In this document: positions 1 to 49,500 of the stretch, one piece after another
Layout: every line of letters begins with the position of its first letter
Position numbering within the stretch: position 1 is the stretch's first letter
Source of the DNA: an uncultured archaeon
GTDB lineage: Archaea > Asgardarchaeota > Lokiarchaeia > Sigyniarchaeales > SOKP01
NCBI GenBank assembly: GCA_964486045.1
Contig: CAZALK010000007.1
Span: forward strand, 1-64,000
Direction: 5' to 3'
DNA length: 64,000 nt
Made by a program: the position numbers and the translations under genes
The notes under the pieces: generated by a model
The model's database searches: none
The model's input: only the letters and a program-made list of their open reading frames with translations
Told to the model about the DNA's origin: nothing

Positions 1-3000
1 CAAAATGCCTTATCTTTCGGTGATATTATTTACTATAATCGAGACCAAAACTATAGTGACATTCCGATTCAATTTAACGGGTATTTGGATAATTGGCAAG
101 ATATAATTACTCAAGAAAATAAAAGCGATATAAGTGTTGATATGAGTTATTGGGACTTTAGTGATGAAATCTGGGTTCCAATGGGCACTCAAACCACAAC
201 CGATGGTACCTTTACTGTTGATTGGCATGTGGATAATAACACCTTCTATAAATTACTTCCCCATCAACGCAGCTATTTACCAATTAATTATACTTTCGAT
301 GAACAACCAAACAATAATTACTTCTATGGTTCCTACGGATATTTTGATGACACGACCACCTTACACCCATTCTTAGTTGATATAAACGGCAATATCTATG
401 TATACTCATACAACAATTCCAATAATCAATGGTTTATCAATTTTACAAATTCTCTGGGATTTTCACTTCAAGGGAATGTAATTTCAAATTTCGATCTTAA
501 TGGAGATATTTACACTGATTTAGCTATTTATAACAAATTAGCTATTTCAGACAATATTTCTCTTTATATTTTCGACTCAAATACTTTAATGTATAATTTC
601 AATCAAACAATATTAGCTTCCAGTATTTCGCTTCCAGAATCCCTTCCTGGTGCCGTGTTTACCGAATACGTGTTTGATTTTGAGAGTACTAGCTATCTTT
701 CTATGTATATATGTGTTAGCAATACTGCTAATGCTGTAAATTATATCGCAAAGCTAGACTTTGATAGCGATCTGGTAAGAACACAGCAAAATGATGGCAC
801 CCAACTTCCTGCAAATAGAATAGTTAGCGCAGTTAACATCGTAGATGACAGTGTGTTTGTTGGTGCAATAAACCCTGCTTATAACTATGTTGTAAATTCC
901 TCTATACTCAGTATTGATAAGAATTTAGTGAATTTCACAATGTTTGAAGATTCGGTAAAAGGAGCTATTTTAGAGCTTAATTCATTTACTTCACCTATTG
1001 GGGTGGTCGTGGTAGCAGGATTGTCTATGTCTTATTATAACGAAGATGATGATATTCTATATTATATATTTGACACATCTACGGACACATGGTACAAGAC
1101 TAGCTTTTCACTGAATTCTGAAGTCGAATCCTTTTCAAACGAAATATACGATTTTAAAATCCGTTCTATCGTAAAGTCTAAGGAGGACTATTTTGAATCC
1201 GTGCTCATTTCCTCATCTCAAGGTCTATGGAAAACATATATCGATACAGAGGTTATTACTAATAGTTTGACACCAATATTTTATGCCGTTGATACGTTTA
1301 GACCGTGGGATCTATACAAATACCAACAAGACAGTGAAACTTCCATAATTCCACTTACTCATAACCCTGCTATTGAAATAATTAACGTCTATGAATTTGA
1401 CAAATATTACGATTTAGGTTATTATACTTACGATGAATTAAGAGAAATTGACTCTTCATCTTATTACATTAGCGCTGATAAGAAATCTTTAATATGCTTA
1501 AATATTAATGATTTAAGTTGGAGAGCAAGGACTCAGGATGATGCTGACCTTTATTATGAAGTAAGATATTTTTATGAGTCTACTGTTGCATATGCTTCTG
1601 GTTTACTTTCTGGAAGTTATAAAGTGGACGAATATGAACAAGTGGGTAATATAGCTGCTCGAAATTCACAGATGAGGGCTGAAAAGTTAGGCTTTCAATT
1701 GTTAAATCCCCATGACTTGGATCACTGGACTTTTTATTACGGAACAGACTATGATGACTGGAACTACCAACAGATTGATGCTACTACAGGAGTTCCTTAC
1801 ATTTTGGCTAGTGGCTTGTTTGCTGATAGTGGGATAGCTTCTCAAGATACCTTGTCAGCGTTAACTGAATATGATAATAAAAGAATGGATTATGGCTCTA
1901 TAATTACTACTAGTAGCACAGTCTCCACCGGAGCGGAGTTAAGTCAATTTGGAGATGGTCAAGATTTCTTCAGACCTTCGGATTTCCAATCTCCCTACAG
2001 CAATTCATATATTGATGCTGTATGGGTTGAAGACCTCTCTAGATCTTCCACCATTGATTTCATTAGTGATATGGATGATTACGCTAGCCTTCAAAGTAGT
2101 ATGGGCGCGTGGACGGACAACATCTTTCCAGAGACTGCAGGACAGATAGGATATCAGCCCGAAATAGTCAATGTTGTTATATGGGATGATCAAGAAGAAT
2201 CAGCAATAGTTGTAGGAAATTCAACGTATGAATCGGTTAATCTAGCTGAAAGAATTAATATACTCAGTGATATAGGTGACTACCTTAAGATCTATCAAGT
2301 AGATCCAGATTTATCTGATCGAGATCTTTATATTGACGTTACCTTCAGACTGGATCATAATGAAGACTATGAAAGTATAAAATATATCCTTGTCTCAACA
2401 TCGTTTGCCCATGAGATAGAACCAATAGCGGGGTATTCAATCGGTAACTTCCCTATGGAGGATTATCATAATAATATACAAGTAGGATTAGCAGATAGTT
2501 CTAACACATACTTCAAAGATATTAATGGAGATGATAGTTTTGACGCATCAAATATTATCACCAGTAGGAGTAATCCAGATAAAGTGTACAACACATTTAA
2601 GACATATAATTTTGGTGAGTCAATATATAGCGACATTGTCGATGGTAAATATACTAAAGTCTCGAACGATGCAAATGAAGCGAATTTCCTATATCCCGGT
2701 TCATCACAAAACTTTATTGAAGACGGGATATTCACAAGGCAAGCTAATAACATCAACCAATTTAACTATGAAAATTATATCCCGGAAGTTATATGGCAAT
2801 CTCCTGCTCAATATTATTCCGAGACGCACATTTATGACTATAACTATTTACGATTAGACACCAGTTCCATTACAGATTTTGCTGCAGATGAAGAACTCAC
2901 TCTTAGAGTTTCACTAGATGGATATTCTTCGCCAACCAACCTATTAGACCATAATGATCTTATACTTCGACAACTTATTTGTACCGTATTTTCAGACAAG

Positions 3001-6000
3001 GACAATTTAAATAATGAACACTGGGATGTGAGTGGTGCAGGCTATACAAGACAAGACTCAGATGGAAGTTTAATTTTAAACTCAGGTGCTATAAAATTAA
3101 ATAATGAGGTGAAAGCATATCCCGTAAGAGCCAACCTAAATAGTGATAATAAGTATCGAGCTTCCTTTAAATTTGAAAGGACTGATGATCCAATGACCTT
3201 CTCTGTTGGAAGTTCTAGTTATACTTATAATCCTCTCGGTCAATATACTCTAGGTTTAAAAGACGATATAAATTTGGTAGAAATTACATATGATAAAACT
3301 GATCCTACAAATTCTTGGCACTTTTTTGTAAATGGTGAGGAGCGACCCGGAACCGAACTAGGGCAATTTGACCATACTAACTTTAATCCTTCTGGTGACT
3401 TATATCCAAAAATATCTGTTGCTGACGGGATTGAAATTGATCTTATAGAAATTAAGAGTCAAGTGTTTAAGAAAATTGATGCCGATTTTAGTAGCTGGTA
3501 TACCGAATTTAACGACACAGACGGACCTACCCCAGTCGGGGGTGTTAACGAAGTAGGTAGAGATCTTACATATTCAGACAAATCTCTACAAAGAGAGATA
3601 ATTTATTCTTTTAACGAAGGGTTAACCAATGTGAACGAAGTGTTCGAAGACCTGCGATTATGGTCTGATATTGATTATAATACTAATTACGATCAAATTA
3701 CTCAACAGCAATATGATCCAAACTTTCCTTTATTTAATTGGAACTTACCTAGTAATGAGCAGCTGTTTAATTCAAATCCGGGAGCGATAGGTGTTAAAAC
3801 CTTTGGTGAGGGTTATTCACTTCCATTAACGTATGGGGAAGTTTGGCACTTCGATGGATATTTCAGAGACTACCCTCTCCCTCCTGCGCTTCCGAGTAAT
3901 ATTTATATCTCAAGGATTGGATTAGATTTTTATTTTAGGTATTCAGATGGGGATGGGTCTGGTTCTACCATAACCTATAAATTCGATAATTTAGGAAATC
4001 TCGTTTTACTTCTTCCTGACCCTGGTCCCGACCCTTATAGTAAATGGAGAACCGAATATGACGGATTCAGAACCGAGTATAATTTTGATGACCTTGAATA
4101 TTGGAATTATGGGGAATTCCAAGATACAACGTTTAGTAACGCAATGACTTATACAGATAATTTAAATTTCGCAAACTTTCCAGGTTATTCGGCTTATTAT
4201 GATGATACTCAACTACATATAAACTCTAAACTTGATTTTTTCGACCATCTTAACGTGGAAGTCTATAGTCTTGATTATGATATATATTATACAGACGAGC
4301 CAAACACATTTGAAGATTATTTAGATAATCAAGAATTTGATATTCCCACAAAGGCTCTTGCTGAATTTTATATAGTTGATAGCAAGAACTATAAAAGAAT
4401 AATTAGCAACACCGATAACTTTAGTTCCAGTGGTTCCAATCTTACAACCCTTCTTGGTGATTCTAGTCTGAAAATGGACGATATTATCTATAAAACTTCA
4501 TTTGGAAACAACGCTCTCAGCTTTAACATTAAGGCAAACATAAATTATCCCGATTTTGCCGATGAGGCGGACTCAATTACCGCTACCAATACAATTAATA
4601 GTTTCCAGATAGTTCCTAAACTAAAGCCAACTGAAGGGAAAGGGCTTTCTATACCAGATCCCGAAGATCTATATCCATACCCATACGGTTCAAGCTGGTG
4701 GCATGAGCAAGAGTTAGTATCGTTAATGCCATTTAACCTTACTTATTCAGGAATCAATGAACAGGACATAGATGGGCTTTCTGACATCATTTTGAAAGCT
4801 AATATAAACGTATCTGTTTCCAATTTTAACGCTTGGTCATGGCGACCCAACTTAAAAGTATATGATTATAATAACGACAAATGGCTTCCATACGAGGGTA
4901 ATATTTATATGTATAACGATGTAGATGATAAATTGGTGTGGACCGGTCAGGAATCTGATACCGCCCAAGATGAATATGATAGTGTACAAAAGTGGCGCGA
5001 TTCTGGGTTATTCTACGGAAATCCAGCAAGTGAAACATCTGATAATGGTACTATTATTTTTAAGATTTCAAAGGATAGTTATGACTTATCTGACATTGTC
5101 AGGTATGATACTACAGGAGGTTATTCCTATTTAACACTTTTAGGTCTTACGTATGTTATTCCTGGAACTTGGAATTCTAATGAAGGAAAGTGGGACTTGA
5201 CTTACGAAGATAACTTTGATTCAAAGGGAAGAATGAGCTTTAATTCCTCATTCACATCAAACTATACCTATGCCCGTTCCTATAAAAAGACGTATGTTAT
5301 TAAGAAGAACCTCAACTACTCTAACGATGTTGCTGACGTGTTTGATAGACCTTCCGTCACTCAACCTTGGATTGACCTTAACGAGACGTTAGGGGCTATA
5401 AACCCAAGGTATATCGCTCAGATTGTGGATGTATACGGCATCAATTATAACCCTAAGATGGTGAGTATTTTAACAGATCCTACTCCTGAAGATGCAATTG
5501 GGAGTGATTACTGGAGATTCAACAGAACGGAAGGGAAACTATACATTCCATTGGGAGCAATAATTAATTATGAAAAGTTTAACTTCACTATGGAATTATG
5601 GACCGATTTCACCCAAGATGTTGGAAATGAAAATATATTTTATCCTGATTCAAGTTTTAATAATATTACTATAGTCGAGAATATAATACGGAATAATAGT
5701 GGTCAGATTGAATACTTTACTAAGAATTTTGAATCAGACTATTCGTTCTATCAAGACGAACCTTATTTCTTTGACCTTAACGGTGACGGAAGTGTGAATG
5801 CTATTGAATTTTCAAATAATATAAATATTGAAAATAATGACAAAATTAAAGGTGTAGTACACAACATCGAGAATTTTGGAAGTCCCGAATTTGACGAAAA
5901 GACTAATTTATTGCTCTATGATACCCTTAAATTTCCATTTGCTGTCACCAACTTAGATGATGCTGTATTATTGGGATTAGATTTAGAATTACAGTTTAAA

Positions 6001-21000: not shown

Positions 21001-24000
21001 GCCTACGAGCCAATTACTCCTGGGATGGTAAAACAGATCTATGCTATTCTAAATAGCACCAATAACCTCACTTATTATCTTACCGACGAATTAAATGATG
21101 CTTTCAATGGCTGGAAAGATTTTGATACCCTTATTATGAAAATGGGATTCTTAAATCCAGATGTACTTGAATATCTAAATGTTTCGTTCTACTATAATGA
21201 TGACACATACATAGGCTATACAAATGTGACTTTAGACATGCTCGACGATGATTCTGGTTCTGTTTACATTAGACTTCCCGACTCAACCGACTTCCAATAT
21301 TTCACGGTCGCTAATAACGCCCACATCACCTTTAGCCCCGCATTCTATCAAGCTGATGATTATCTCGGATTTTTCTATGAACAAGGGGTTCCTACCTACC
21401 AATCAGTAGAATGGGCTCTTGACGATGTAGTAAACGGTTATCTACCTATTGATTTAGATAAAGAAGCCTTTTCACTCAATGAAAAAGTATATATATTTAA
21501 TGATCAATATGAATTCCTTTATGCAATAGATACTGGGTTAAGAGAGCAAAAAGAGGATTCTAATGGACAGATTTACACTTTACAATATAATAACGTTTCA
21601 ATCCCGAGCTCATATATAATAGGTGGAAATCCAATGCAAATGAAAGATGGAGACCTTCTCTTTCTAAAATATAACGCATCTTTAGAAGAATCAATTGGAA
21701 TAATCGTTGAAGATATGGTGCTTCAGAAGAAACCTTATATCTTAAATTATGAGACAGAACTAAATGACGTACCAATTGCTGAAATTTCTTTATTAGGGAT
21801 TAATAATGACGGAATAACCTATACAACTGAAGGTCTTTATGAGAATCGAGATAAACTCGTGGCATGGAATACCCCCTTAGGCTTAACTCCTTTTGAAAAC
21901 GGATTTTATAATGAATACAAACAAGCAATTATCAATATATCTCTAAGTGATATTTACTCTGATTTCAAGACAGTAAACGCTGATAATATCGAATACTCTT
22001 ATATAACCGATATTTTAATCACATCTAACGACCCACGCTATGAGTTAATCGTCGATTCGATCTTTCTATTTGAATTTGATGAAAATGCAACCCTTTACGA
22101 TTCGGATATTTTCGATATTTTTGATAACAATCACATGGAGAAATTCTATGTTGGTGATTATGCGCATATTTACAACGAGGTCTTAACTCTTGAGGCAAGC
22201 GAGTTTCTACCGCTATATCAAGATAATAGTGCAATTAATGAGACCTACTATTTCAACGCATTTGATAATGACGGGAACTATTATTATTTTGACGAGCACT
22301 TAAGTGGTCAAGAAACGACTTCAGGAATTTATGATATTACTTGGAATTCTCAATACAGCGAAGAATATTATTATGCCTATCGCGACCAAGATTCAGATCT
22401 TCAAGACTTATTTGAGTATTACAACCCACACATCGACACTTTCAGGTATCTTTATATCTCATGGGCAGACCAGAATGCATGGAATGAATGGCACACTATT
22501 GAAACTCCAAATGTAAATAGCAGCACACTTGATATAACCTTTAAATGGTACGATGAAGTCTTAGAGGAATATCAATCCGTATCATATGATCAATCCCTAG
22601 ACGAATTTGAAGCAAGACATATTGCGATTGAAAATATTTACCCATACAACTCAGGACCGGTAGAAACATTTGACTTATCACAAAACTATTACAACGCCGT
22701 AAACCTTGAAATCATGCTTGCCAAGGGATATTATTTTAACGAATCTGAGGTTAATTTTGATCTAGGAAATGTTATTTTACAGGGTGATAAAAAATCGATT
22801 CAAATTACGGAACCAAATGGCTTTGAATTAAATAATTTCGAGAAGATAGTTGTATATCTTAACTTTACTGAGGGTGCGTACTCCGATTATACTCAATTTA
22901 GACTGAAGGACAATGGTTTTATTAATCACCCAGAAGCACCATTGTGGACCAAAAATGACAGCATTTATGTTAATTATGAATACAATGATATTGATTACTT
23001 TCTACTCATGGAAGATTATGCTGTCGGTTCTGATGATTCGCTTTTTGAATACTCCGAATATGTGAGAAATGGTAATTTTGTCTCATATAATACCTTAGAC
23101 TCTGAATATGAAGTCCTTAAAGATATGCAGCTTGCAAACTTCGACAATTTTACTGGAAAAGAGGATAAGAGAAACACTCTTGAATTTTACGATTCAGATC
23201 TTGATGGTACACATGAACTTGTTATTCAGAAAGAAGATGTAGACGTTGACGGAGTTTATGATGTGTTTAGATATGGTGAGGTAGATCCCGCGGGAGAGAT
23301 TGTGTTTCATACGACTCTAATTACAATCGAGTCATCTAATACAGAGACACAAAAGGCCAGTAGTGTAAAGCGGAGTAATTATTACAAAATCGCAGGGGAT
23401 GATTCAATTTTTGGTGATAGTCTCCAAATCATGATTGCTAACGATGGTGACTTTGCATGGTGGTGGGCTGGTACTTTGTTCGGGCGAAGGACCATGATAA
23501 CCGACACTACCACAACCACAACGACCACCACAAGTACCATAATGGTGCAAAAGGACCTCGATTTGGACGGTATTATCGATAAGGATATTACATTCGAGTC
23601 AATAAACACTATTTCAGTAGCATCTACCTATACTACAGAGATCCTTGGGTTCTATCTTGATGATATCTTCAGCGAGAATCATATGTTTGAAGGCTCGTTG
23701 ATAGAATATCGCAATTCAACAGTAGAAATGTCAGATAAATCTCATACATTTACATTTAGGGATTATAAGAACGGTGAAGTAAGTTCCACTCGAATTTACG
23801 AAGACATATTTCCAAATGAGCTTTCAGATAAATACAATCTCAACAATTATCTTACTACCGTCATTAATAATAACGACGATGAAGATCCTTCAAATGACTT
23901 TGTTCTTCAAGCTCCCGCTCTGGAGAGTTTATTGACCTTTACCCACGCAACCGATAATGTCCCTGCTTTATTTGATAGTAAAACTACTATAACCTCCTCG

Positions 24001-27000
24001 ATAGCCATGTATAATATTCTAGCAACTCAGAAAACCGTATCAATCCCAGACTCACGAACTAATCTATATAAGACATCCTCTGTACTAGACATTATTCAAG
24101 TGATTCCTGTTGACGGTAAGGTTATAGTTGATAGCAATCCTCGGTACAGTCCTAAGGAAGTGAGTATCAACGGTGAATATTGGTATTACTCTAGCGGTCA
24201 AGACGGAATTTTCGACACAGTTTTTGTCGTAAACGAAGATAAAGAAGTGTTAGCTATTGGTTTTGACTACGATTATAACTCTCTATTTGTACCAAATAAG
24301 AGAATTAAAAGTGAAAAACACCTCATAAACACCGTAGTAGGGGGCGGACATGACTTTTCATCATTAGGTCCTCAAAATAGAGTATATTTGCGAGACACCA
24401 ATTCTTATGACGGAAATTTCATGGATAATACATTTTCCGATTCTCTCTACGATATTTGGAAGATGCATTATACCTCAGAGACCAGTGCGTTGATGAAAGA
24501 GATTTCCGCTATTACATCACGTCAATTTGTTCAAACTGTGACTCCCAGGGTAGTTGATGACGTTCTTTGGCAAGTTGGTGCAGGATTATTTGCGACAATA
24601 TTTATGATTACCTCAAGTACAGGTCCTCTCGGATTTTTGCTCATGTATGGAACCCTTCAAGCAGCTCATGCTCGTGAGGTTGCGGAGGAGAACCTACAAT
24701 TGATCGCTTCGCAGACATTCTATAATGAGGACTTCGAGGCGGAAATAACTCTTTCAAGTAAGAAAGCGTATGACGAGTTATGGGGGGGAACAATCCCTAA
24801 TATACTTGGGGGTAGTACTTCCGGAGTATATGCCGGAGTGTATTTAGAGACTGATAGACATATTTTTAAAGGAGATCTTCTGCTTGCCCCACAAGGAATC
24901 CAAAAGACTGATTGGATGGGTAATAACGTTCCGATCTCCTTAGACTATGCTGCACAGACACGAAGTTATTCTGGATACTCAGATATAAATGATACTCGTC
25001 TCAACGCACATTTATTTACCTACGAGTACCCTGAAGGTCATCATAATGAGCCTGGTGCGCTTGACCAAGTAATTACTGAAGCCGGTATTGATATAAGCGC
25101 TTACAATTTGAATTCAGTAATGCATTTAGAGAATGCAATTTCCCAGGAAACAGGTGGTCAATATGACACACTCTACCCATATATGTTATACGACAATAAT
25201 GTTTTTATACCAACTTTCCAATTTGCCGGCATTGACAACGCATTTCCAGTGCCTGACTTCTATCATGAATATCCAATATTCGTAGATCTCCAATCCAGTA
25301 GTGCAACCCCAACTTTTATAGTTTCTGACCTTTACACCATCTACAAAATATTTGATATCAACAGCCCACGGGATATTGATATTGTTCCTGATAATGGAGT
25401 TCATATGATTTACAGCGATGTTCAACGAATAGACGTCTATCAATATACGACAGCAGACCTTGTTATGGGATATGACCAAATCGTTTATGACAGAAAGTTT
25501 ATCGGATCATACTATAATAATAGCTTTTCATTTAATAAAACGCAAGGAATTCTCACTATTGATAAAGATGTCCATTCTTACCTTGTATCACAAGCAGGAG
25601 CATTAGAAGTTGCCCACCTTGGGGACCCCGATTATGAGGTGTTTTATGTGTTTGAAATTAAGATTGCTAAATATCAAGTCTTAGATCCTGAGGACAAAAA
25701 AGAGAGTCATATTGCCACCATGCAAGCCGTCGAACAAAACATCTTAGAGTATTCTTATCAATACACACACGCTCAAAACACGCAGCAAGGGTTATCGGAG
25801 ATGTTTTATACCGTTTTTATTACCACGATAAGCACCATAATTACTGTCGGTCTTACTTATGGGATTGGCTCGTTTTTGAAACCAAGTACCGGATTTGTAT
25901 GGGATGGCACCGGTTGGACTTTTATGGATACTCTTACAACCGATGTTGGCGTAAGTACATTAGTAAGTCATTTTGCAGGGGTTGCGAGCCAGATGTCAAA
26001 AATAAGCGTTTTATTTTCCCCAATTAAAGAGTCTTTACAAGAAATATTTGTTGATCCCTATCTGGAGACTATAGTATCTGATATCGTCGCAAGTCTTGGT
26101 GGAGGCATCGCTTTACAAGTGCTATTCAGCAGTCTTGTTGAAGGTGGTCGTGAAAGCATTACTGGGCCGTTATCACAATTCATATTCGGTGACAGTCAAG
26201 TTAATACTCAGAGCTTAGTGACCGAACAACATGTTATCAATGTCATTTCACAAGAGGAAAGCGTTGTGGAGAATGCCATCGAGAACAAAAAATATTCACT
26301 AAAATACAGTCCACAATGGAGTTCAATTTTCAAAACCGGAGCTTCTCTGATTCTTGGTGCAGCACTCACAGCCATCGGCGGACCTATGTTCTTTGGTGGC
26401 ACTCTTGCCAGCGGATTTGTTGCCCTCCAATCGATTTCCCAAGATGTGAAGATACAAAAGACTATTATTCATAATATTGTATCTCAAAGTTTCTCAACTG
26501 ACTATAATGCTAAAAACAACGCCGAAGAGATCGAAATTCAGGTACGTGCTGCGGGAGTACATCCTGATATTGCTCTTCAAAAGATTTCCGCCTTCTCAAC
26601 CCAAAAGGTTAGAGATTTACTTCCAAAAGTTTACAGTGCTTATGAATATAATCCTTTATTAAATATTTACCTTGTTGCAGGCCACACAGTTCTCGATCCA
26701 AATTTACCATTATCAAAGATCCACTACAGGAGACCACTTACTGTGGTGGCTGATATGGTAGGTGGTGCTACATCTACTCGGATTGACGCAACAAGTATTG
26801 TTAATGAAATGGCAGAAGCATTATATGCAAAATTAGTTGCAAAAATTCCACAAAAAACTCTTGGAGATGCGATTCTTGCTACTTTTTCGGAAGATGCTCT
26901 AAGGCAATTACTTGCTGATAAAGGGATTTATAGAGACAAGTTAAGATCATGGATAACTAAAAGCCAAGAAAGTTTTAATGTACTTGTTGAAATCGCTACT

Positions 27001-28497
27001 GAAGCTCACATTTTGAGAAATATTATTTTTCAGCGAAGTAAGATGTTTTCATTTACTTCTAAATTGACTGAAATTTTTAATGAATTTCAACATCCCTATT
27101 TATTCACTGAAGGATTTAAACGACATTATTTTACAAATCGATTTGGTCGAGGTGCTGATTTTAAGGCAAATATGATTGAGCAATTTCAAGATTTTTTTAT
27201 AAGTGTTCAAGACCCAGATATCACATTAGAGAGTCGAAACCGTCTTCTAAATATGATGGATATTTATAGTGCTCAGAACAATTTACCAAATTATCGTCAA
27301 CTTAGGGATAAACCAGTATATACTTTACTGGAAGCGGCTAGGAAGGCTTTTTCAAAGCAAGAGGGCAGTTTTATACCGATGAGTAACTTCATACGACGTA
27401 TTGTTGGTAGTGGAATGACACAATATTCAATGATAGTACAAGACCAATTTGGAGCTATAAAGGTAAGCAATCTTTGGGCTTATTGCAAAGAAAATATTTT
27501 AAACCAAGATGATAAAGCATATATTGAAGGACTTGTAAAGGCTGCAGGCTTTTATCTTGATAGTATTATTTTGACAGATTCTGATTCCCTCAAGGCTCCC
27601 GAAATTGAAATTGTTGCTAAGCTCCAAGACAAACTTAGTGTTTTAAATAGATGGAAAAATAGTAATCCTTCTGTGAGAGAGCTGACACAATATTTCGGAG
27701 TAGATTTTAGTAGAGTTATGTCTGAATACTCTCATGATCGGTTCAAAAGAGTATTTTTTGACAATGAGATTCAAATAATAAAGGGCAAATTACATTCTGA
27801 CCTATTAGCTATAAGTCCACGAGGTTATAATGATATTATCTTTATGCTGAATAAATACGATTCAAGCAATAGAGTTAGAGAGATTGAGCACAAGTATAAG
27901 ACATATCAAGGATGGATAAATAATCGAGATCGTAAGATTTATGGAGATTCTGATACTGTTCATCCTAAAGTCTGGAATAAGCCCAAGTTTCGGGAAGCAA
28001 TACGGAAAGTTCTCTTTCCGAGACAGGGAGGGCATGTTACAGTTGAGAACGGTGAGAGCGTCTATCATATATTTGATGGTTTTACAGGGGAAGTCTTTAC
28101 TTGGAGAAAATTAACATTAACACCACATAAGGATCTTCAGTCAGGAAATGTTGTTTTAGTAGCTACTAACGAAGAAGGTGTTGAAATTGCCATTATTCAT
28201 CACATTGATTTTAATAAAGAGAATAATCAGCTTAGTAATTACTTGTGGATACGTAGTGAGAATCATAAGACAAATCTTAGAGATGATGCCAAGAGGAAGT
28301 ACATAGCTCAAGGAAAGATAGCTTCCTTAGCATTTGAATATGGTTTAGCTCCGAGATTCTGGTCTCACGAAGCACAATTAAGATTTATTGAAGCAAAACG
28401 TACTAATAGTGGATTATTTCCTTCAGGGGATACAATTATGATAGTGGGGGATTCTACCAACCAATTAGGCTTGGATCATTTCTTAGGAAATAAGTAA
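1..28497 (+). CDS. Giant (>=9,498 aa, 5'-truncated) surface/secreted protein with C-terminal membrane helices and HNH nuclease tip; candidate polymorphic toxin
   Basis: Frame 1 is open from base 1 (QNALSFGDIIYY...), so the TTG at 85 is not the true start. D/E/N/Y/T-rich beta-type body with many NxS/T sequons and DxNGD/DxDxDG Ca-binding motifs. Hydrophobic helices at ~24.6 and 25.8-26.4 kb. Basic C-terminus with HHIDFNKENNQLSNYLWIRSENH. Confidence 0.9.
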   Translation, partial: QNALSFGDIIYYNRDQNYSDIPIQFNGYLDNWQDIITQENKSDISVDMSYWDFSDEIWVPMGTQTTTDGTFTVDWHVDNNTFYKLLPHQRSYLPINYTFDEQPNNNYFYGSYGYFDDTTTLHPFLVDINGNIYVYSYNNSNNQWFINFTNSLGFSLQGNVISNFDLNGDIYTDLAIYNKLAISDNISLYIFDSNTLMYNFNQTILASSISLPESLPGAVFTEYVFDFESTSYLSMYICVSNTANAVNYIAKLDFDSDLVRTQQNDGTQLPANRIVSAVNIVDDSVFVGAINPAYNYVVNSSILSIDKNLVNFTMFEDSVKGAILELNSFTSPIGVVVVAGLSMSYYNEDDDILYYIFDTSTDTWYKTSFSLNSEVESFSNEIYDFKIRSIVKSKEDYFESVLISSSQGLWKTYIDTEVITNSLTPIFYAVDTFRPWDLYKYQQDSETSIIPLTHNPAIEIINVYEFDKYYDLGYYTYDELREIDSSSYYISADKKSLICLNINDLSWRARTQDDADLYYEVRYFYESTVAYASGLLSGSYKVDEYEQVGNIAARNSQMRAEKLGFQLLNPHDLDHWTFYYGTDYDDWNYQQIDATTGVPYILASGLFADSGIASQDTLSALTEYDNKRMDYGSIITTSSTVSTGAELSQFGDGQDFFRPSDFQSPYSNSYIDAVWVEDLSRSSTIDFISDMDDYASLQSSMGAWTDNIFPETAGQIGYQPEIVNVVIWDDQEESAIVVGNSTYESVNLAERINILSDIGDYLKIYQVDPDLSDRDLYIDVTFRLDHNEDYESIKYILVSTSFAHEIEPIAGYSIGNFPMEDYHNNIQVGLADSSNTYFKDINGDDSFDASNIITSRSNPDKVYNTFKTYNFGESIYSDIVDGKYTKVSNDANEANFLYPGSSQNFIEDGIFTRQANNINQFNYENYIPEVIWQSPAQYYSETHIYDYNYLRLDTSSITDFAADEELTLRVSLDGYSSPTNLLDHNDLILRQLICTVFSDKDNLNNEHWDVSGAGYTRQDSDGSLILNSGAIKLNNEVKAYPVRANLNSDNKYRASFKFERTDDPMTFSVGSSSYTYNPLGQYTLGLKDDINLVEITYDKTDPTNSWHFFVNGEERPGTELGQFDHTNFNPSGDLYPKISVADGIEIDLIEIKSQVFKKIDADFSSWYTEFNDTDGPTPVGGVNEVGRDLTYSDKSLQREIIYSFNEGLTNVNEVFEDLRLWSDIDYNTNYDQITQQQYDPNFPLFNWNLPSNEQLFNSNPGAIGVKTFGEGYSLPLTYGEVWHFDGYFRDYPLPPALPSNIYISRIGLDFYFRYSDGDGSGSTITYKFDNLGNLVLLLPDPGPDPYSKWRTEYDGFRTEYNFDDLEYWNYGEFQDTTFSNAMTYTDNLNFANFPGYSAYYDDTQLHINSKLDFFDHLNVEVYSLDYDIYYTDEPNTFEDYLDNQEFDIPTKALAEFYIVDSKNYKRIISNTDNFSSSGSNLTTLLGDSSLKMDDIIYKTSFGNNALSFNIKANINYPDFADEADSITATNTINSFQIVPKLKPTEGKGLSIPDPEDLYPYPYGSSWWHEQELVSLMPFNLTYSGINEQDIDGLSDIILKANINVSVSNFNAWSWRPNLKVYDYNNDKWLPYEGNIYMYNDVDDKLVWTGQESDTAQDEYDSVQKWRDSGLFYGNPASETSDNGTIIFKISKDSYDLSDIVRYDTTGGYSYLTLLGLTYVIPGTWNSNEGKWDLTYEDNFDSKGRMSFNSSFTSNYTYARSYKKTYVIKKNLNYSNDVADVFDRPSVTQPWIDLNETLGAINPRYIAQIVDVYGINYNPKMVSILTDPTPEDAIGSDYWRFNRTEGKLYIPLGAIINYEKFNFTMELWTDFTQDVGNENIFYPDSSFNNITIVENIIRNNSGQIEYFTKNFESDYSFYQDEPYFFDLNGDGSVNAIEFSNNINIENNDKIKGVVHNIENFGSPEFDEKTNLLLYDTLKFPFAVTNLDDAVLLGLDLELQFKTGFIGKESITNILLSESDYDINLEFYKRESGQDNYIGTLHLEDLTDVFSQYGLYNLSIDLKKSGLHLNSLFECFEGGKELIVNVTASFHGFHQGKRLNGKFALEILYAEIDADLVNEYPTLDMVELYPTNDGTQYINMSSDFMHNPAYADIDELYGYSYADGQLQFIDPAKYYSGSLKYLSDISGQKGTHSGDLTNIDRKDGNYLNLTSESGAGTSLDYILDGQYVPRQPDDFSLDRGSADYSGYLDRLDGSYSTFTSDDTIPGNVLDPQNIAPSEYITSLSGFYDTDSNLANSYVDDSNYASINSKWAIIYVINVGLNFNTPLGGRDFAFNIHIGRSGIGLVDLYVNGQLVASSNEIDLNFNSHDVTRIEIYAWGVLDFDVYVYYFKLMELTDFTILEGSSNQGGDVEFDDNSWTTFTSNTIESASQSLIPEDDAITEWDFPASAPHWNDVNVDDSLYIKEDAYGSEFPGQTDQFIFPDWTIPSEAQGARVTTLKIHVLSKKDSGATAWSAVKYSLNGGSSFSSEKNVVSGTGYGWYTLTWTGLSLTTVQLEYLEVAITCYNQDPVWITQSPGYIYVDMIYVELIYTKPTINRIEFISQFTMDPVGQFVNDIDLDYAYVFPTTSNLFMDFYIYNFAQGTWDFIEEDEFNMADTYSVLPTHYNTQNEVIVKMKAYTGSGLYPAFTLELDQLRLTFNNTALSFTSEIFVDNIYADSVLQYSYRLNSSQTLAFEIWSEIFQQWITISEDNRQSFTKSTFNLRGDLPGMYFDQSQKILLRFFAENFMLQTFNLQIDLLNVGHSSYTTEETTGLEDYFVSIDYYSNDENFYLLYGDDLGYHSLGTLRSTSGTTFTTNFFPVLLDTRLTLRIIHNETSSPVSIYLDRIIISSNSTEEIDDIIITSDTTYDLYYANLKFLNVPSLVSSHITSTPLTYTEMKKNYYVFKISDIDTTNEFIVDRVKFISPSHTENITILPQDYYHVADDEIYIDSTVATNPSVIPTSQLTADYSYIYDSWEENEYVDTQPYVHNFTISTAQRLEAISFMTTFTEIPQIQSWFFGTTEEEANYKQLSNQLIKDVNLLDIQLFDYASDSWETVNYVVYDLADRDARTFGFFIDRNAIDFLKYDGLSTNNLMYQLKYRFKIEQNYFDEDYSTKTFFDIQDLKVQVYYNPGKSVVSLNPQLEFSADLSDIIHPNGDTSTTAHINELSFDIDWRYGVSVNDAPVDDIDINEVFNNFTLYSNYVNLSVFDKFGTKTLLTKAGGKYYLRNSNTENVYDFINDKHGKQYVDFLLDYKWELRGLISYIYGSIFDLEASIELTNLKLRAKITTVEKELITPISMPVNGSIYVGDITGDSINDIGFMGGFLEKKENNDRFYVKYDFSYLYDADDDDLFNSTKDPRVYFAQYIQDISFSSADVEGFLYYDGENSNKTLIIGDEFLFNLTTTGNVDEAYLYVDLGSSEVIGSNIYNVYANISYEDTTSGSFTLNPTSTTTVDRSGTVNWTTPDNAKAQDDALTNASIILGGGSGQYAMPTSSNFTFTEGNLIYGDLENVDAAYTNLTPGFTAGGGGELEGTFGYTSTGSNKHGLNKDNKQGTIFSLSQDGNVTKISAYAKTGGGAKNPKVAKAVIYSVSSGSPTTLLGVSDELILDNTLQWRDFTFSLEVELTAGDYWIGLIHGTKIDIYSINDIAYDRIYNSDDYGDNPDSTFGAFSNETGKKLCIYATYNYTIGGPDSYDLNTEIEWAPSESVSSMDYLRWNYVNSTPINFYIYNWVTTDYENFTSSISPLTLGGNYNSSDNRVKVKFNKTDTSSFTVDINQLRIEYSTPVLPSQSDWLRSTDFGFIIPDGATINGIMVEFDRYSPQTGQNSIRDYSVMLRNSSGRVGDDNANTSYWKMVDDDTYNSYGNSTYLWGTSWTVGEINSASFGVDIAVQNDGVSNTAYVDEIRITVYYTEAPAPYDGIIRPDGDITAEWETSSGSSHFALINEVTLDTNNYIYTSSIASSNITDTFDMSYLDIGTGSITQIQVKVYGDEIDIDSTINVYCGTWLGTKQLGMTSEGWYTYTWTGLSLSQANLTNMQIKFESAPPQTISGPVLIGQFSAIGGTSNKFSFNWSSIEQSMAYTTGDETDVIVEIIDIDSGSSLNLTYTVLLDFEDPTSVISIGDGATDYSLNNYAAPWTLFNIFTTDNLQGIINHTNYYYTDEISVEYQINVFDMSNISLYFSGFSPISGTETTLFDLGVPVNNFEDHTKYYYTIEFRITDAAGNTITNSSYLGDSYNYDATIPRILVSNEVTIQFDNNLINVNEIYQGIGTIVNFTLIGADNSELQNNWIKVKSGNYYLEITLWNEASQRYEVRFDSLDDLILYSENIFENTLVSNFPLDFQLNWDATGTDYYAFAKHASQKDPLVLSYFLQEERTSVMEISECEGFRLLDYINYSEVFSYLYNGETGEYDIKHNFDENDFTVFINGSVSWNVNFSQYNIEDNLVFFNYYGSDYAEIIKDTQKDGMFLKILVPNIYSTHGTIERLQIIFTDFDDNRFVYSMDSLDFDKYFKDASQYKRVISGLSELLEIPIHIDFSRLSGTNMEANFDITEIYSIDFIVTDAPIWPGSVSMYDPNTGFTIINFPYQIFGISQMNFYDILSNNSALMVYFDEFKYNFLADEGSTIELDQFDSEITDMEAFTELQPLSLTQSNDLYYTSIIDIYFRVSYATTPFLLYDMATPVLLMVDNLTGTTLGFSFLEWDNSIDKFHSKFSITEELGNYELIFTLLPTITEETVNSTDSIEIELIPQILSQIVLKNEREIVFNPDYTFTLNTKFNIDFEEELNLMGYILDNSTYYRDREIIPYKATDPIGEFTLTEYEIDLNGLIGESEFIDKDNFKLEFIDRENYNEITLLFEVIDGQIIYNITSLIEGCWISYYAYYRVDHPNKFMLIINWTSDNSQLIPYDTDLLLTYKVIQGKIITPVTFEDIEDVVIPVDFRMFSYDTFEWENTKQIDSEILETNPTFENSSLFTSVSQGQWRLVDNSSTGAGIITLKDVWKEVGGAFELLNESLYTYSIRNESGVDALNLTYTGSGSIDFKIEYGYIPKQKLTHYAINNFLINSTISIRINNSVTITNMTHGIGYDITGTTNNYITFYTFYSSVTPEYKVGDAYFISYYGYLTEEINLVNNMILEFLDSDGFWIPITKVPIGADGNLDHSFFMGEDGLEFPLNEEIIMRIVYLPSSLTNYNDQSLGVDYSGFNPVYNTTYSINEMFTLTVNGKQSKISYIPTEFSRTFDQWATVQDRIYTTTTSPYETLQVGKPYTYFDFHRTITDNYEFQFELTDDRGEFLADQLVWMEIGFKPKAGLNYKILDWEDEDGNYIDSEALGTAWITEQGQEGVRGPGVLDPTYSISRMFTRPESWEYLDSKTGQVAEYSSLFWDYQITDNTGIVSFNVSLDEDLIEDHHRIFDESLFSSGSVTFDSLDDYRLYIRVFHAPVYDIGHMAFDDASQLYMSQDNNVFDLGRVSELDGYDYKDTTFYSGGYGEGLITIHPEDLMLGVPNLLVHQMGSELNFSFSVEIAEADVVPDAELMTIAKLETSFETNNLIPEDSQNIYLINGMPIIAMITDYSGESVFEEGLVQFSAYVDSDGVATFNINDTYLNQLIPGVYQVNIFTLPREYTKDVYRFISLEVRPENWMKFGEPTMTLDLLNWYDSGWGGAYFGNDYAFYEDIYPRLTGYLATLHSEEGISDYINFKVSAKARDIGDTTDWSEFSWIELGDEDLFISSLVYDGLYYFEYPLGQDGDMLMGKEVILNISADATYNQTGMIADNREQKLFILNLTLTNSSIRTDSVILDSYSDSDIGEFWIGNLAENYGVERYFEYTDDIDTYGIDSDDILLNLNGYTDIIDIVEVRGIYEYDEVILIEGAGNNYTVIGDYSIVINSGTTLDNYSDLVISYTVKLEENKVKTWTFSETNGFEFSEILFNTDTTPLQLDHDNYLGVYNSKFNESYTLDVSGMANLNVGFIDSDITLKDVKIYNITDNTGQKIEDSYELSIINNNKQIRIDVDLTGPKDVFIKYGVASYKLDRGYQRIDMNMTDAVRKLSRFRDSHKLYNHSSSTDINLLTIPDDPQDPLNPGTPKILIPILEDNKTTISFNYLALLYDSILNGSFFLDDAVLYGNVSKLKPILATFTFTTEDGESYFDYVSIDPSTGENRFDFEINLQPMYAVKGYTTYDIEIDFLTYGNNMNITQYVIFDKFELTADDRILQVIDKPMKNKRNEINVAQTINTAHYAQIFTDRLNEAYDVVNDAWVTIAVEGFDDYGELVKLYKDENNYDELTFEVIDNNSYSFKSEQSQDYRLTESLGLHINAYDLELPEYIEGEVNLYAGKGTEAYGEVFVDAKEFNMTWQYSDYTVDVSQFDDNIYNTQNFELSTQPLTSQYMYVNGDLYLHHRVDLTDSNNIISSGLPNGVQFAVEIPNATTRIDYVDINTIDRISTPWDWVESWQGFALTQDDYIVYNPDNADTYTPSTVVLTEGTHYDLVITEQGENQIHFYETKDDIILLLTSNTIQIDFHADFEFTEFDYSIDEPANTYSPTLHWKFPDSSYLFWDQFEYHPDLTSATTFSASFYHLSEYAPMSAFMSSTTEEFQFYPNEYNFTEFIFTGFDDRFYEVSLNLTNGGEFDDIIQDKQWDRINPFGITIQTEAGERYVNEKYMISWSHDVNYPTEPIYTFTMVKEYFEYLNILNDTEVLVTYNYMKESSSYYTKYDDILYGSSYTFTIKDSLGNIIQPVGNISSIQGNNITFTDSIKQYLTIGENFTIEYSFKTKGGLLDTKHFFIEIQPYEMKFYNNYYPFSGSSIVAPLYYNLSANYQYQLALNYRLQEKTFLTFSTELSDYEATSKTATIELSQNDPLEDKDGFVLVTYFINSSGQKEIIEDEYVDYNKLYHKVIISDFDAFTEGDTLVEGDSIYAMIMPELLNKYQPFHYVETDLSNRAFTLTNWKVSQDTDNTLMANFDSNNFIYGATAYEPITPGMVKQIYAILNSTNNLTYYLTDELNDAFNGWKDFDTLIMKMGFLNPDVLEYLNVSFYYNDDTYIGYTNVTLDMLDDDSGSVYIRLPDSTDFQYFTVANNAHITFSPAFYQADDYLGFFYEQGVPTYQSVEWALDDVVNGYLPIDLDKEAFSLNEKVYIFNDQYEFLYAIDTGLREQKEDSNGQIYTLQYNNVSIPSSYIIGGNPMQMKDGDLLFLKYNASLEESIGIIVEDMVLQKKPYILNYETELNDVPIAEISLLGINNDGITYTTEGLYENRDKLVAWNTPLGLTPFENGFYNEYKQAIINISLSDIYSDFKTVNADNIEYSYITDILITSNDPRYELIVDSIFLFEFDENATLYDSDIFDIFDNNHMEKFYVGDYAHIYNEVLTLEASEFLPLYQDNSAINETYYFNAFDNDGNYYYFDEHLSGQETTSGIYDITWNSQYSEEYYYAYRDQDSDLQDLFEYYNPHIDTFRYLYISWADQNAWNEWHTIETPNVNSSTLDITFKWYDEVLEEYQSVSYDQSLDEFEARHIAIENIYPYNSGPVETFDLSQNYYNAVNLEIMLAKGYYFNESEVNFDLGNVILQGDKKSIQITEPNGFELNNFEKIVVYLNFTEGAYSDYTQFRLKDNGFINHPEAPLWTKNDSIYVNYEYNDIDYFLLMEDYAVGSDDSLFEYSEYVRNGNFVSYNTLDSEYEVLKDMQLANFDNFTGKEDKRNTLEFYDSDLDGTHELVIQKEDVDVDGVYDVFRYGEVDPAGEIVFHTTLITIESSNTETQKASSVKRSNYYKIAGDDSIFGDSLQIMIANDGDFAWWWAGTLFGRRTMITDTTTTTTTTTSTIMVQKDLDLDGIIDKDITFESINTISVASTYTTEILGFYLDDIFSENHMFEGSLIEYRNSTVEMSDKSHTFTFRDYKNGEVSSTRIYEDIFPNELSDKYNLNNYLTTVINNNDDEDPSNDFVLQAPALESLLTFTHATDNVPALFDSKTTITSSIAMYNILATQKTVSIPDSRTNLYKTSSVLDIIQVIPVDGKVIVDSNPRYSPKEVSINGEYWYYSSGQDGIFDTVFVVNEDKEVLAIGFDYDYNSLFVPNKRIKSEKHLINTVVGGGHDFSSLGPQNRVYLRDTNSYDGNFMDNTFSDSLYDIWKMHYTSETSALMKEISAITSRQFVQTVTPRVVDDVLWQVGAGLFATIFMITSSTGPLGFLLMYGTLQAAHAREVAEENLQLIASQTFYNEDFEAEITLSSKKAYDELWGGTIPNILGGSTSGVYAGVYLETDRHIFKGDLLLAPQGIQKTDWMGNNVPISLDYAAQTRSYSGYSDINDTRLNAHLFTYEYPEGHHNEPGALDQVITEAGIDISAYNLNSVMHLENAISQETGGQYDTLYPYMLYDNNVFIPTFQFAGIDNAFPVPDFYHEYPIFVDLQSSSATPTFIVSDLYTIYKIFDINSPRDIDIVPDNGVHMIYSDVQRIDVYQYTTADLVMGYDQIVYDRKFIGSYYNNSFSFNKTQGILTIDKDVHSYLVSQAGALEVAHLGDPDYEVFYVFEIKIAKYQVLDPEDKKESHIATMQAVEQNILEYSYQYTHAQNTQQGLSEMFYTVFITTISTIITVGLTYGIGSFLKPSTGFVWDGTGWTFMDTLTTDVGVSTLVSHFAGVASQMSKISVLFSPIKESLQEIFVDPYLETIVSDIVASLGGGIALQVLFSSLVEGGRESITGPLSQFIFGDSQVNTQSLVTEQHVINVISQEESVVENAIENKKYSLKYSPQWSSIFKTGASLILGAALTAIGGPMFFGGTLASGFVALQSISQDVKIQKTIIHNIVSQSFSTDYNAKNNAEEIEIQVRAAGVHPDIALQKISAFSTQKVRDLLPKVYSAYEYNPLLNIYLVAGHTVLDPNLPLSKIHYRRPLTVVADMVGGATSTRIDATSIVNEMAEALYAKLVAKIPQKTLGDAILATFSEDALRQLLADKGIYRDKLRSWITKSQESFNVLVEIATEAHILRNIIFQRSKMFSFTSKLTEIFNEFQHPYLFTEGFKRHYFTNRFGRGADFKANMIEQFQDFFISVQDPDITLESRNRLLNMMDIYSAQNNLPNYRQLRDKPVYTLLEAARKAFSKQEGSFIPMSNFIRRIVGSGMTQYSMIVQDQFGAIKVSNLWAYCKENILNQDDKAYIEGLVKAAGFYLDSIILTDSDSLKAPEIEIVAKLQDKLSVLNRWKNSNPSVRELTQYFGVDFSRVMSEYSHDRFKRVFFDNEIQIIKGKLHSDLLAISPRGYNDIIFMLNKYDSSNRVREIEHKYKTYQGWINNRDRKIYGDSDTVHPKVWNKPKFREAIRKVLFPRQGGHVTVENGESVYHIFDGFTGEVFTWRKLTLTPHKDLQSGNVVLVATNEEGVEIAIIHHIDFNKENNQLSNYLWIRSENHKTNLRDDAKRKYIAQGKIASLAFEYGLAPRFWSHEAQLRFIEAKRTNSGLFPSGDTIMIVGDSTNQLGLDHFLGNK
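28198..28266 (+). other. HNH (beta-beta-alpha-Me) nuclease motif at the tip of the giant protein
   Basis: HHIDFNKENNQLSNYLWIRSENH matches the HHIDxNKxNNxxxNLxxxxxxxH consensus of HNH_3-type endonucleases. Confidence 0.8.
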
Positions 28498-28599
28498 TTT
28501 TTATACCACTATATTTTTTTATATGCATATTTCCATATAATAATTGTTTAAAGTTTTGAGTTGGATTAAAAACAAATTTGTTTTATCTTCGCTAAGTTA

Positions 28600-29937
28600 A
28601 TGAGTAATAGAATAATTTATCCTCATTTTAAGAAAAATATTGTTCGGCTTAGTAGATATATTTCTCTGAAGTTAGAGGATACTAGAACTAATATTTACAT
28701 CGATAACAAATTGTTTATGCAATGTAAATCGTTAATTGTTCATATCTCAATAGATAAATTAAAGAAATATGATGATCTTACTTCCATTGACGATTTAGAG
28801 CAAGAATTTCTTAACTCAAATCACAATCAATCAGAGCTAAGTCCAGAAGATGAGTTTTGGGGTCATTGCTCGAATATTCAAGGTTGGATAGAAAGTGATT
28901 ATGATGCGAGGATCTTACATCACAGTTTAGCTTTCCCTCTTTTAAGAACATTGTATAACTTAGGGGATATTAAGGCCAAAAGAGCTTTTAAGGCTGAGAT
29001 AATTTCTCGATTCATAAATGGGTCAAAACAAGTCAAAATTTTTTTACTTGAGGAAGGTTTTCTATGTAATTTTAGCTTAGAAGAGCGGGAATTAATAAAT
29101 AAAGGTCTTGATGAGCTTTATAATACTTCCTATTTTGCTAAGACTTATTTTTCAGAAAATGAAATAGCATTACTCTTTGATAAAGATGAATTAAATGTTA
29201 TTCAAGAAAAAATTCGCCCGAAGAATTTTTCTAAATCTTTTACACGCAAATATAACCATTTGAAACCCATTTACGATATATTTGAGATCAATGAACTCAG
29301 GAAGCTTACGGATATCACTAGTTTAGCCCTAATCCAGAATTATATTGCTGAAATTAGAGGAATTGAGGACTTTACATATTTAAGAGAGCTTTGTTTAAAT
29401 ATGAATGAAATTAAAGAAATTAAAAATCTTGAAAAACTCAAAAAACTTCGACAACTATCACTACCAGGAAATAATATTTCTGAGATTAAGGGACTTGGGA
29501 ATCTTACAGAATTAGAATTCTTAAGTCTTGGTGATAACCAAATAGTAAAGATTGAAGGCCTCGAATGTTTGAAAAGATTAAAGGTTTTAGACCTTTGGGA
29601 CAATAAAATTAAGGATATTGAAGGTCTTGAGAATCTTACTGATTTGAGACAATTAGCTCTGGGAGGTAATTATATTTCGGAAATTGAAGGTTTAGAGACT
29701 CTTAAAAATTTGAGGGTGTTAATACTTAATTCTAATAAAATATCTGAAATAAAAGGTTTAGATAAACTGATTCACCTTAAAAAAGTTACATTCTATAACA
29801 ACAATATCTCAGAAATTCATGATTTTCCAAATTTACCAGAATTACAAGAGGTTAGTCTTAGGAGAAATCCAATTAGTAGTAAAGATATTAAGGATATTCA
29901 AAAAATTTTAGGTACTAAAGTTAAAGTTTATTTTTAA
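28600..29937 (+). CDS. Leucine-rich repeat protein (SDS22-like LRRs) with Lokiarchaeia-type N-terminal 'EFWGHCSNxQxW' domain
   Basis: C-terminal tandem 22-aa repeats LxxLxLxxNxIxEIxGLExL. N-terminal LKLE..TNIYI...F.QCK...SID...EDEFWGHCSNIQGW..DYD.RILH..LAFPLL. Confidence 0.9.
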   Translation: MSNRIIYPHFKKNIVRLSRYISLKLEDTRTNIYIDNKLFMQCKSLIVHISIDKLKKYDDLTSIDDLEQEFLNSNHNQSELSPEDEFWGHCSNIQGWIESDYDARILHHSLAFPLLRTLYNLGDIKAKRAFKAEIISRFINGSKQVKIFLLEEGFLCNFSLEERELINKGLDELYNTSYFAKTYFSENEIALLFDKDELNVIQEKIRPKNFSKSFTRKYNHLKPIYDIFEINELRKLTDITSLALIQNYIAEIRGIEDFTYLRELCLNMNEIKEIKNLEKLKKLRQLSLPGNNISEIKGLGNLTELEFLSLGDNQIVKIEGLECLKRLKVLDLWDNKIKDIEGLENLTDLRQLALGGNYISEIEGLETLKNLRVLILNSNKISEIKGLDKLIHLKKVTFYNNNISEIHDFPNLPELQEVSLRRNPISSKDIKDIQKILGTKVKVYF

Positions 29938-41405: not shown

Positions 41406-41441
41406 TAATCTTTCAACTATTGTTTTTATTTCATTTCCATA

Positions 41442-41879
41442 TTATTTCATAGCTTGCTTACCACAAAAAAGACACTTTTTTACAAATTTGGGCATTATAT
41501 TTCCACAGTTTTCACATTTACCTATTAGTGGTGTAGAATAATTAAAATCAAGGCTTATGTGCTTAAAAACTTTTGGTTGGGGCTGTCTTGGTTCTTTTAT
41601 TTTAAATTTATCTTTTCTCCTTTGAGTATTAAGAGCTATCCTTTTCTTTTTATCTGGAAACATCCTAGAATAAAGAGATTTTTTACGGTGTTTTAAAAAG
41701 GGACCCGCAGATATTAAAAATAGAAACACAAGTATAATTATTACAACAAAAGGATTTACATCAAATCTATTTATTATTGTAAAAATAATTATAAAAGCAG
41801 ATAAGTAAATAATTAAAATAATAAATTTGAATATAATCCTTTTAGGAGTTGGTTCTTTAGGTTCATTATCATTAGTCAT
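41442..41879 (-). CDS. Small membrane protein with C-terminal zinc ribbon
   Basis: Two N-terminal TM helices; CENCG...KKCLFCG. Confidence 0.75.
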   Translation of the reverse strand: MTNDNEPKEPTPKRIIFKFIILIIYLSAFIIIFTIINRFDVNPFVVIIILVFLFLISAGPFLKHRKKSLYSRMFPDKKKRIALNTQRRKDKFKIKEPRQPQPKVFKHISLDFNYSTPLIGKCENCGNIMPKFVKKCLFCGKQAMK

Positions 41880-41917
41880 TTATCGAGTTTTATAGCTTTA
41901 ATTTAATTCGAATTATT

Positions 41918-44212: not shown

Positions 44213-44260
44213 TATAATAGCCTCTTATTGTAAGTGTTTACTATCTAATTTCTAATATTA

Positions 44261-44899: not shown

Positions 44900-44902
44900 A
44901 TC

Positions 44903-48793: not shown

Positions 48794-48857
48794 AAATAAT
48801 CCTAAATTTCCAATTTTCCCTTTCTCTTCAGAAATATTTATTCAACTCACTATTTAT

Positions 48858-49486: not shown

Positions 49487-49500
49487 GATTTCCCTCTTTT

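Follow-up and report, generated by a model that had tools for sequence, protein, structure and literature searches.

A giant Lokiarchaeal surface protein with an exchangeable nuclease tip: a candidate contact-delivered polymorphic toxin

Contig CAZALK010000007.1 (here C7) of an uncultured archaeon of the Lokiarchaeia (GenBank assembly GCA_964486045.1; genome of 5.18 Mb) opens with an open reading frame (ORF) of 9,498 codons that ends in an HNH nuclease and is followed by a leucine-rich repeat (LRR) gene, which raises the question of whether the encoded protein is a toxin delivered to other cells, a receptor, or an enzyme that works at the cell surface. We analyzed the first 64 kb of C7 (positions 1 to 64,000 of the forward strand; "the window"), together with related genes in the same genome and in other genomes. 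Overall, comparisons of sequences and predicted structures suggest that the protein is most probably a surface-tethered, contact-delivered polymorphic nuclease toxin, built on an undescribed chassis and used in conflict between archaeal cells. The evidence consists of a conserved body that carries exchangeable C-terminal tips, of downstream genes that travel with these tips, and of a near-absence of N-glycosylation sequons (N-X-S/T) from the tips.

A first-pass annotation had described a protein of more than 9,500 residues with an HNH tip and an adjacent LRR gene, an acidic, sequon-rich body, hydrophobic Gly/Ala/Thr helices behind it and an HNH motif at 28198-28266. All of these were found at those positions; the ORF has 9,498 codons with its start off the contig, the tip has an HNH fold, and the LRR gene begins 102 bases past the stop codon. 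The features of the locus are as follows.

1-28497, + strand: giant ORF of 9,498 aa, cut off at its 5' end by the contig edge
1-24510, + strand: acidic, sequon-rich, modular extracellular stalk, with 50-100% identity per 250 aa to a paralog on contig C8
11464-12264, + strand: insertable modules that recur in several copies in a 20,619-aa relative and in the N-terminal giant-gene fragment of contig C36 (repeated matches at identities of up to 51%)
23191-23580, + strand: three DxDxDG putative calcium-binding loops (motif only)
24511-26490, + strand: conserved pre-tip module (helical hairpin, beta domain, 60-residue helix, moderately hydrophobic Gly/Ala/Thr helices), the family marker
25543-28494, + strand: sequon-free C-terminal 984 aa, marking the part that would cross a membrane
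26530-26766, + strand: ubiquitin-like (Ubl) domain ending Met-Val-Gly-Gly, a candidate release site (E about 1e-5 to the host's stand-alone Ubl, C10:126182-126445)
26767-27954, + strand: effector region made up of helices only, weakly resembling helix-turn-helix (HTH)/XRE DNA-binding domains (Z 4.5-5.3)
27955-28416, + strand: HNH nuclease domain (motif at 28198-28266; Cap5 at Z 6.3, root-mean-square deviation 3.3, 93 residues aligned; McrA and a retron HNH on the same residues)
28600-29937, + strand: 445-aa soluble protein with an N-terminal Promethearchaeota-type "HCSN" domain and LRRs, 102 bases past the stop; candidate immunity protein

A conserved body with exchangeable ends

The giant frame (1-28497) has no upstream stop, and its 5' end is absent because the window begins at base 1 of contig C7; the host assembly holds no contig that overlaps the start of the gene. 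The true protein is thus longer than 9,498 aa. Its first residues align near residue 3,160 of a complete 12,736-aa relative, and by comparison with relatives the complete length is probably 11,000-13,000 aa. The stalk is rich in Asp and Glu (15.4%, vs 5.6% Lys and Arg) and carries 125 sequons in 8,170 aa. Searches of the whole 9,498-aa protein against Pfam and NCBIfam matched no family and detected no YD/RHS or hemagglutinin repeats, in agreement with the earlier view that the delivery chassis would be of a different type; the body is of no described type, although the bodies of relatives carry LamG and immunoglobulin (Ig)-like modules. The Loki's Castle metagenome contains close homologs, annotated as hypothetical. 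An independent metagenome assembly contains a tip that is 99.85% identical, and its junction region and downstream genes agree as well, which rules out an assembly chimera at the end of the gene.

Besides the giant ORF, the host genome contains six further copies of the end of the body, the tips of which are unrelated. In all, at least 7 copies that bear the pre-tip module and 7 orphan tips were found, and most of the orphans adjoin a gene of partner type. A paralog of 9,447 aa lies on contig C8, which opens with the same 50 bases as C7; identity between the two proteins is mostly 70-100% over residues 1-7,750, 36-56% over residues 7,750-9,000 and about 21-23% in the tip. Copies truncated at the 5' end occur on contigs C4 and C23, and a more distant group is found on C9, C10 and at a second C8 locus. 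As contamination of the host genome is estimated at 7.8%, one or two paralogs could stem from a sister strain. Two host contigs carry sequences from the start of such genes: C36:1-5700 is a giant-gene start with 5 transmembrane helices, a small upstream gene and a divergent HTH gene, and C17:154-2290 has a start 94% identical to that on C36, joined directly to a piece of mid-body (a deletion remnant or a misassembly). For the giant ORF itself, the missing start is predicted to encode a 5-helix anchor similar to that of C36.

Using a profile of the 660 aa preceding the tip as the family marker, we found matches in 56 of the 134 genomes of the host's family. Outside that family, 1 of 26 further genomes of the class matched, as did, among 400 genomes searched, 3 from other classes. 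Many of the relatives have intact frames of 9,100-20,600 residues, the largest being a 20,619-codon frame (G024:C13:86445-148304; L030-L033). Their bodies are collinear, with inserted or duplicated modules. The N-termini of the six relatives whose starts could be read, as well as that of the C36 fragment, contain 4-15 transmembrane helices, and the complete genes are preceded by a divergent HTH gene and, for most of them, by a gene of 93-105 aa. The expectation that tips would vary while the body is conserved was therefore borne out among relatives and even among the paralogs of a single genome.

Nuclease tips and their partner genes

The effector of the giant ORF comprises 576 aa. The first-pass annotation had placed an abrupt switch to a basic domain near 26.75 kb; the boundary stands and coincides with the end of the Ubl domain, but the effector is only mildly basic (77 Lys and Arg vs 69 Asp and Glu). 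Similarly, the two helical units that had been described as repeats lie where they were placed (27316 and 27598) but gave no BLAST match to each other. The HNH motif, His-His-x-Asp...Asn...His, is kept in effector homologs. The predicted structure, which had been suggested as a check, reached a predicted local distance difference test score (pLDDT) of 80-94 across the nuclease; five HNH structures, Cap5 being the best, can be aligned to its residues 489-642. The nearest folds are the defence nucleases Cap5 and McrA. The HNH match emerged only in the wider structure search, as the Foldseek search with the whole tip was diluted by the size of the tip; Foldseek with the tip and pre-tip models gave nothing at E <= 0.001. 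The Z score to Cap5 is modest, and the predicted fold is assigned on the agreement of the motif, a Pfam trace and repeated HNH matches on one region.

This effector family is small (19 representatives among 1.8 billion proteins), and six homologs could be assigned a genomic context, which was either a neighbourhood of Lokiarchaeal-type genes or a short contig. Other tips of the giant family give GIY-YIG, PD-(D/E)xK, LAGLIDADG-like and HTH signals, and many are without assignment. The tip of G012:C47 (L049:6062-7852) has a weak match to S24/S26-type peptidases, possibly a further release device. The same HNH effector also occurs on a cysteine-containing N-terminal domain without a homolog in the host genome (P0003; L082:6001-8538), which represents a third chassis. 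Related HNH genes adjoin the genes for elongation factors EF-2 (L082) and EF-1alpha (L085), and at L086:1493-3761 a truncated HNH tip and an HCSN gene are inserted before EF-2, with a duplicated 5' piece of EF-2 ahead of them. In addition, the host genome (G000) carries a second polymorphic nuclease family (C1:291709-296838, C1:700558-704943, C1:493688-495415 and C20:3-3383), in which a low-complexity acidic/proline-rich N-terminus and a common middle part (67% identity between C1:291709 and C20) precede zinc-finger and PD-(D/E)xK or LAGLIDADG-like domains akin to the giant tips; sequons are kept in these proteins.

Downstream of the stop codon, 57 of 73 complete tips have a neighbour on the same strand, typically 30-160 bases away. 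Leaving the generic HCSN family out of the count, we observed 71 pairs sharing both tip and partner as compared to 16 expected (maximum of 36 in 5,000 shuffles; as kin are not independent, this permutation value overstates the association). The link held in every bin of chassis identity (38-61% vs 7-14%), including under 25% and over 40% identity. G022:C5 provides an internal control, in that only the first 300 aa of its tip are common with family A and its partner differs. At the level of families, the proposed co-variation of the downstream gene was thus observed. New tips would be acquired through recombination within or close to the pre-tip module. At G014:C35:17270-20175 (L037), five or six zinc-finger partner genes stand in tandem upstream of a giant gene, an arrangement resembling poly-immunity.

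For the LRR gene of the window, the evidence is more general. An LRR gene also lies downstream of the closest effector homolog (40% identity), and an HCSN gene downstream of another; HCSN genes flank 21 of 73 tips as compared to 47 of 4,368 genes. This enrichment is large; its specificity is the weakest among the partner classes. A complex prediction for the effector and the LRR protein scored 0.01 and is not used as evidence either way. The LRR gene may, on slightly better than even terms, be the cognate protector of kin; protection of kin by dedicated partner families is likelier. Examples of such dedicated pairs are the tips on contigs C13 and C6 with their zinc-finger partners. The host's expanded HCSN family, the 47 members of which are usually fused to LRRs, could represent a dispersed stock of immunity genes.

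The tips could also be delivered and still be selfish: site-specific, homing-type endonucleases, passed to neighbours or re-imported, would spread their own cassette by recombination, and the partners would be regulators. In line with such a role, the recognisable tips belong to the HNH, GIY-YIG, PD-(D/E)xK and LAGLIDADG groups and have long helical DNA-binding regions, while headless copies and tip-partner cassettes are scattered, including in ribosomal operons and before EF-2 with its duplicated 5' piece. However, homing nucleases usually reside in introns or inteins and have no need for a 10,000-residue stalk; small tip-specific partners in toxin-then-immunity order and the tandem array of partner genes fit immunity; and one tip weakly matches the RNase-type family PBECR1. 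We consider this explanation unlikely.

Sequon avoidance and the route of the tip

Asgard N-glycosylation acts at N-X-S/T of exported proteins (PMC11284389), and AglB is present in the host genome. Among all 91 tips, we found a single sequon as compared to 572 expected (0 vs 199 in the first 37 tips; 1/318 and 0/55 in later sets). The C-terminal 984 aa of the giant ORF are free of sequons, where 6.8 are expected, and across the family avoidance begins at the second helix cluster (1 of 33). Reversed motifs and motifs with Asp or Gln substituted occurred in the tips at expectation, and the non-glycosylatable N-P-S/T was enriched (24/7); these controls rule out an artefact of composition. Sequons were found at 0.92 of expectation in soluble cytoplasmic proteins, at 45 vs 44 expected in partner genes and at 1.83 of expectation in ectodomains, none of which (0/90) was empty. 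The same nuclease families retain sequons on chassis without membrane helices. When the 1,851 host proteins were ranked by sequon-free tails, the giant family was placed in the top 11.

Because a cytoplasmic domain would feel no such selection and ordinary surface enzymes show no such avoidance, the tip appears to be exported but kept bare. Export is indicated by the N-terminal transmembrane anchors of the six relatives with complete starts and of the C36 fragment, together with the sequon avoidance in the tips. We infer that the last ~900 residues leave the cell and yet must stay bare, most simply for crossing a membrane again; the sequon pattern leaves open whose membrane is crossed.

These data bear on two further explanations. 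The protein could be a surface adhesin with an extracellular DNase or a variable self-recognition tip that works outside cells, as proposed for VARTIG of Thermococcales; its body resembles that of an adhesin, relatives having LamG and Ig modules, and hypervariable C-termini without toxicity have been proposed (PMC8416519). Ordinary ectodomains, however, are enriched in sequons, with at least one in each of the 90, and Ubl domains and soluble cytoplasmic partners are sensible only inside a cell, which makes this account very improbable. The alternative offered by the first-pass annotation, a giant receptor whose helices cross the producer's own membrane and whose cytoplasmic nuclease kills the producer on sensing virus or contact (abortive-infection type), agrees with the defence-nuclease folds and with the hydrophobic helices between stalk and tip, but it predicts about 0.9 of the expected sequons, as a cytoplasmic domain never meets AglB, and the pre-tip helices, which differ in number among homologs, are not as strong as the genuine N-terminal anchors, so that it is strongly disfavoured and can be considered extremely improbable.

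For a contact-delivered toxin, the pre-tip module is the candidate membrane-penetration unit. Its model has a pLDDT of 66 (under 50 for the last 100 aa), and its best Z score (7.3) is to generic helical hairpins. Matches to phage tail or neck structures were non-significant, and the ESM Atlas gave only leads under 0.9, with DUF637 solely as a lead at 0.82.

The Ubl domain lies between this module and the effector. The host's free Ubl ends Gln-Ala-Gly-Gly, and the genome carries a Ubl-E1-E2-JAB cluster. A profile of six embedded Ubl copies matches the Rad23 Ubl (E 2e-7) and ubiquitin in the PDB; Pfam ubiquitin matches 3 of the 6 copies, and does not match that of the giant ORF alone, which is also unfolded in the model, the alignment depth being too low. 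At the same site other tips have a hydrophobic hairpin (7 tips) or a GQxxGA motif (5 tips), and homology between P0029 and G003:C8 starts directly after the Ubl end. The same HNH effector sits behind three different linkers; the linker is therefore a module of its own. A deubiquitinase of the target could plausibly cut after the Gly-Gly of the giant ORF's Ubl, although most embedded Ubls end Gly-Ala. The Ubl could instead serve as a handle for unfolding or pulling.

A mechanism consistent with these data can be proposed. The N-terminal helices would anchor the protein and the remainder would be exported, the stalk being glycosylated by AglB; a stalk of 8,000-18,000 residues could then reach a neighbouring cell. 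There the pre-tip hydrophobic helices would insert into the neighbour's membrane and bring the final, unglycosylated ~900 residues through it. A JAB-type Ubl protease of the target might next cut after Gly-Gly and free the 576-aa effector, other copies using other linkers, although we give this step somewhat less than an even chance. In the target, the helical domains would bind DNA and the HNH domain would cut it, while the downstream cytoplasmic protein would protect kin. A broader proposal is more tentative again: contact-dependent conflict in Lokiarchaeia may proceed by single-chain, membrane-tethered injectors of 10,000-20,000 residues with an undescribed translocation module and threaded cargo free of N-glycans, some copies using the target's Ubl processing for release.

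Several observations weigh against the interpretation as a delivered toxin with a dedicated partner. The N-terminus of the giant gene itself is missing. No known translocation fold (colicin, CdiA, Tc and others) was matched by the pre-tip module, for which the model is of low confidence. Ubl domains occur in only about 14 of 88 tips, and a true Gly-Gly end is found in only 2 of 10 Ubls of the giant ORF's type (the giant ORF's own and that of G090), the rest ending Gly-Ala or otherwise. The tips that can be recognised are almost without exception DNases from homing-endonuclease superfamilies, whereas bacterial systems use a broader range. With regard to partners, most of the 47 host members of the HCSN-LRR family are not beside a tip, 13 of the 21 HCSN neighbours of tips are convergent and thus not co-transcribed, and the C23 paralog, which has a related HNH tip, lacks a same-strand partner.

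If this interpretation is correct, fighting or kin discrimination by touch would exist among close relatives of the eukaryotic host lineage, a point that matters for cell-cell contact models of eukaryogenesis. About 40% of the genomes in one Lokiarchaeal family carry the giant family, and the host genome has a dozen or more copies and cassettes. The Ubl linker and LRR partners would link two eukaryote-like Asgard protein families to conflict, the expanded Lokiarchaeal LRR family would gain a testable role, and Ubl-dependent release would limit killing to cells with an Asgard-type ubiquitin system. The sequon-free tail represents a simple, strong genomic marker for translocated cargo in glycosylating prokaryotes and could find other archaeal effectors.

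Elsewhere in the window, an A/V-type ATPase cluster at 39594-51038, with two A-subunit-like genes (39594-41405 and 46291-48135), was read from the sequence only.

Comparison with known systems

Ubiquitin-ribosomal protein fusions are precursors cut by deubiquitinases. As in these, a Ubl ending Gly-Gly stands ahead of a cargo in the giant ORF, and the host encodes a free Ubl and JAB proteins, among the latter those at C5:175160-175999 and C2:173008-173499. Unlike in these, the Ubl sits in the interior of a protein that would be exported, and in most members of the family it ends Gly-Ala or is absent.

Like the aloposon giants Otus and Ephialtes of Heimdallarchaeum (PMC8813620), members of the present family are giant Asgard proteins with truncated copies elsewhere in the genome. 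Aloposons, however, consist of tandem genes for 3,000-6,000 aa at tRNA sites with a ParA-like ATPase upstream (PMC8813620), whereas the giant family is set apart by its gene context: a single gene, preceded by an HTH gene and a small gene. No tRNA genes were found in the window or at nine family loci, and aloposon identity was rejected on this context (no tandem giants, tRNA site or ParA-like ATPase upstream). VARTIG of Thermococcales (PMC8416519) resembles the giant family in belonging to a large surface protein of archaea, in the hypervariable C-terminus and in the varying genes downstream, but its variable part is an Ig domain, while that of the giant family is an enzyme behind hydrophobic helices. 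The haloarchaeal contractile injection system (PMC11566945) is also a case of contact-dependent antagonism by an archaeon; it is a multi-gene phage-tail-like machine, whereas the giant family is a single polypeptide without such genes nearby.

Polymorphic toxin systems have been described as generally absent from archaea, some methanogens and haloarchaea excepted (Zhang et al. 2012, PMC3482391). We found no description of them in Asgard archaea in the literature searched, with the Makarova 2019 mBio work on archaeal polymorphic toxins lying outside that search. Features of contact-dependent inhibition (CDI), i.e., the TPS domain, FHA repeats, VENN/DUF637 and CdiB, gave no Pfam or NCBIfam match on the 9,498 aa or on the N-terminal parts of complete relatives, and an Rhs/YD toxin was rejected as YD/RHS repeats and the RHS core were unmatched in the same databases. 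Judged by its genes, the system would count as a polymorphic toxin under the genomic definition and is not a member of the CDI, Rhs or aloposon groups. It shares with polymorphic toxin systems (CdiA-CT/CdiI, Rhs, MafB and others; PMC3482391) a constant trafficking body, a variable C-terminal domain as the putative toxin, the toxin-then-immunity order, stand-alone cassettes, partner-gene arrays, HNH and PD-(D/E)xK tips and candidate LRR-type immunity (Imm-LRR). In contrast to these systems, it is without a detected known delivery module and combines a polytopic N-terminal anchor, a length of 9,000-20,600 aa, a stalk that would be glycosylated, a tail free of sequons, tips of 440-1,850 aa, a Ubl linker and orphans that are dispersed rather than in tandem.

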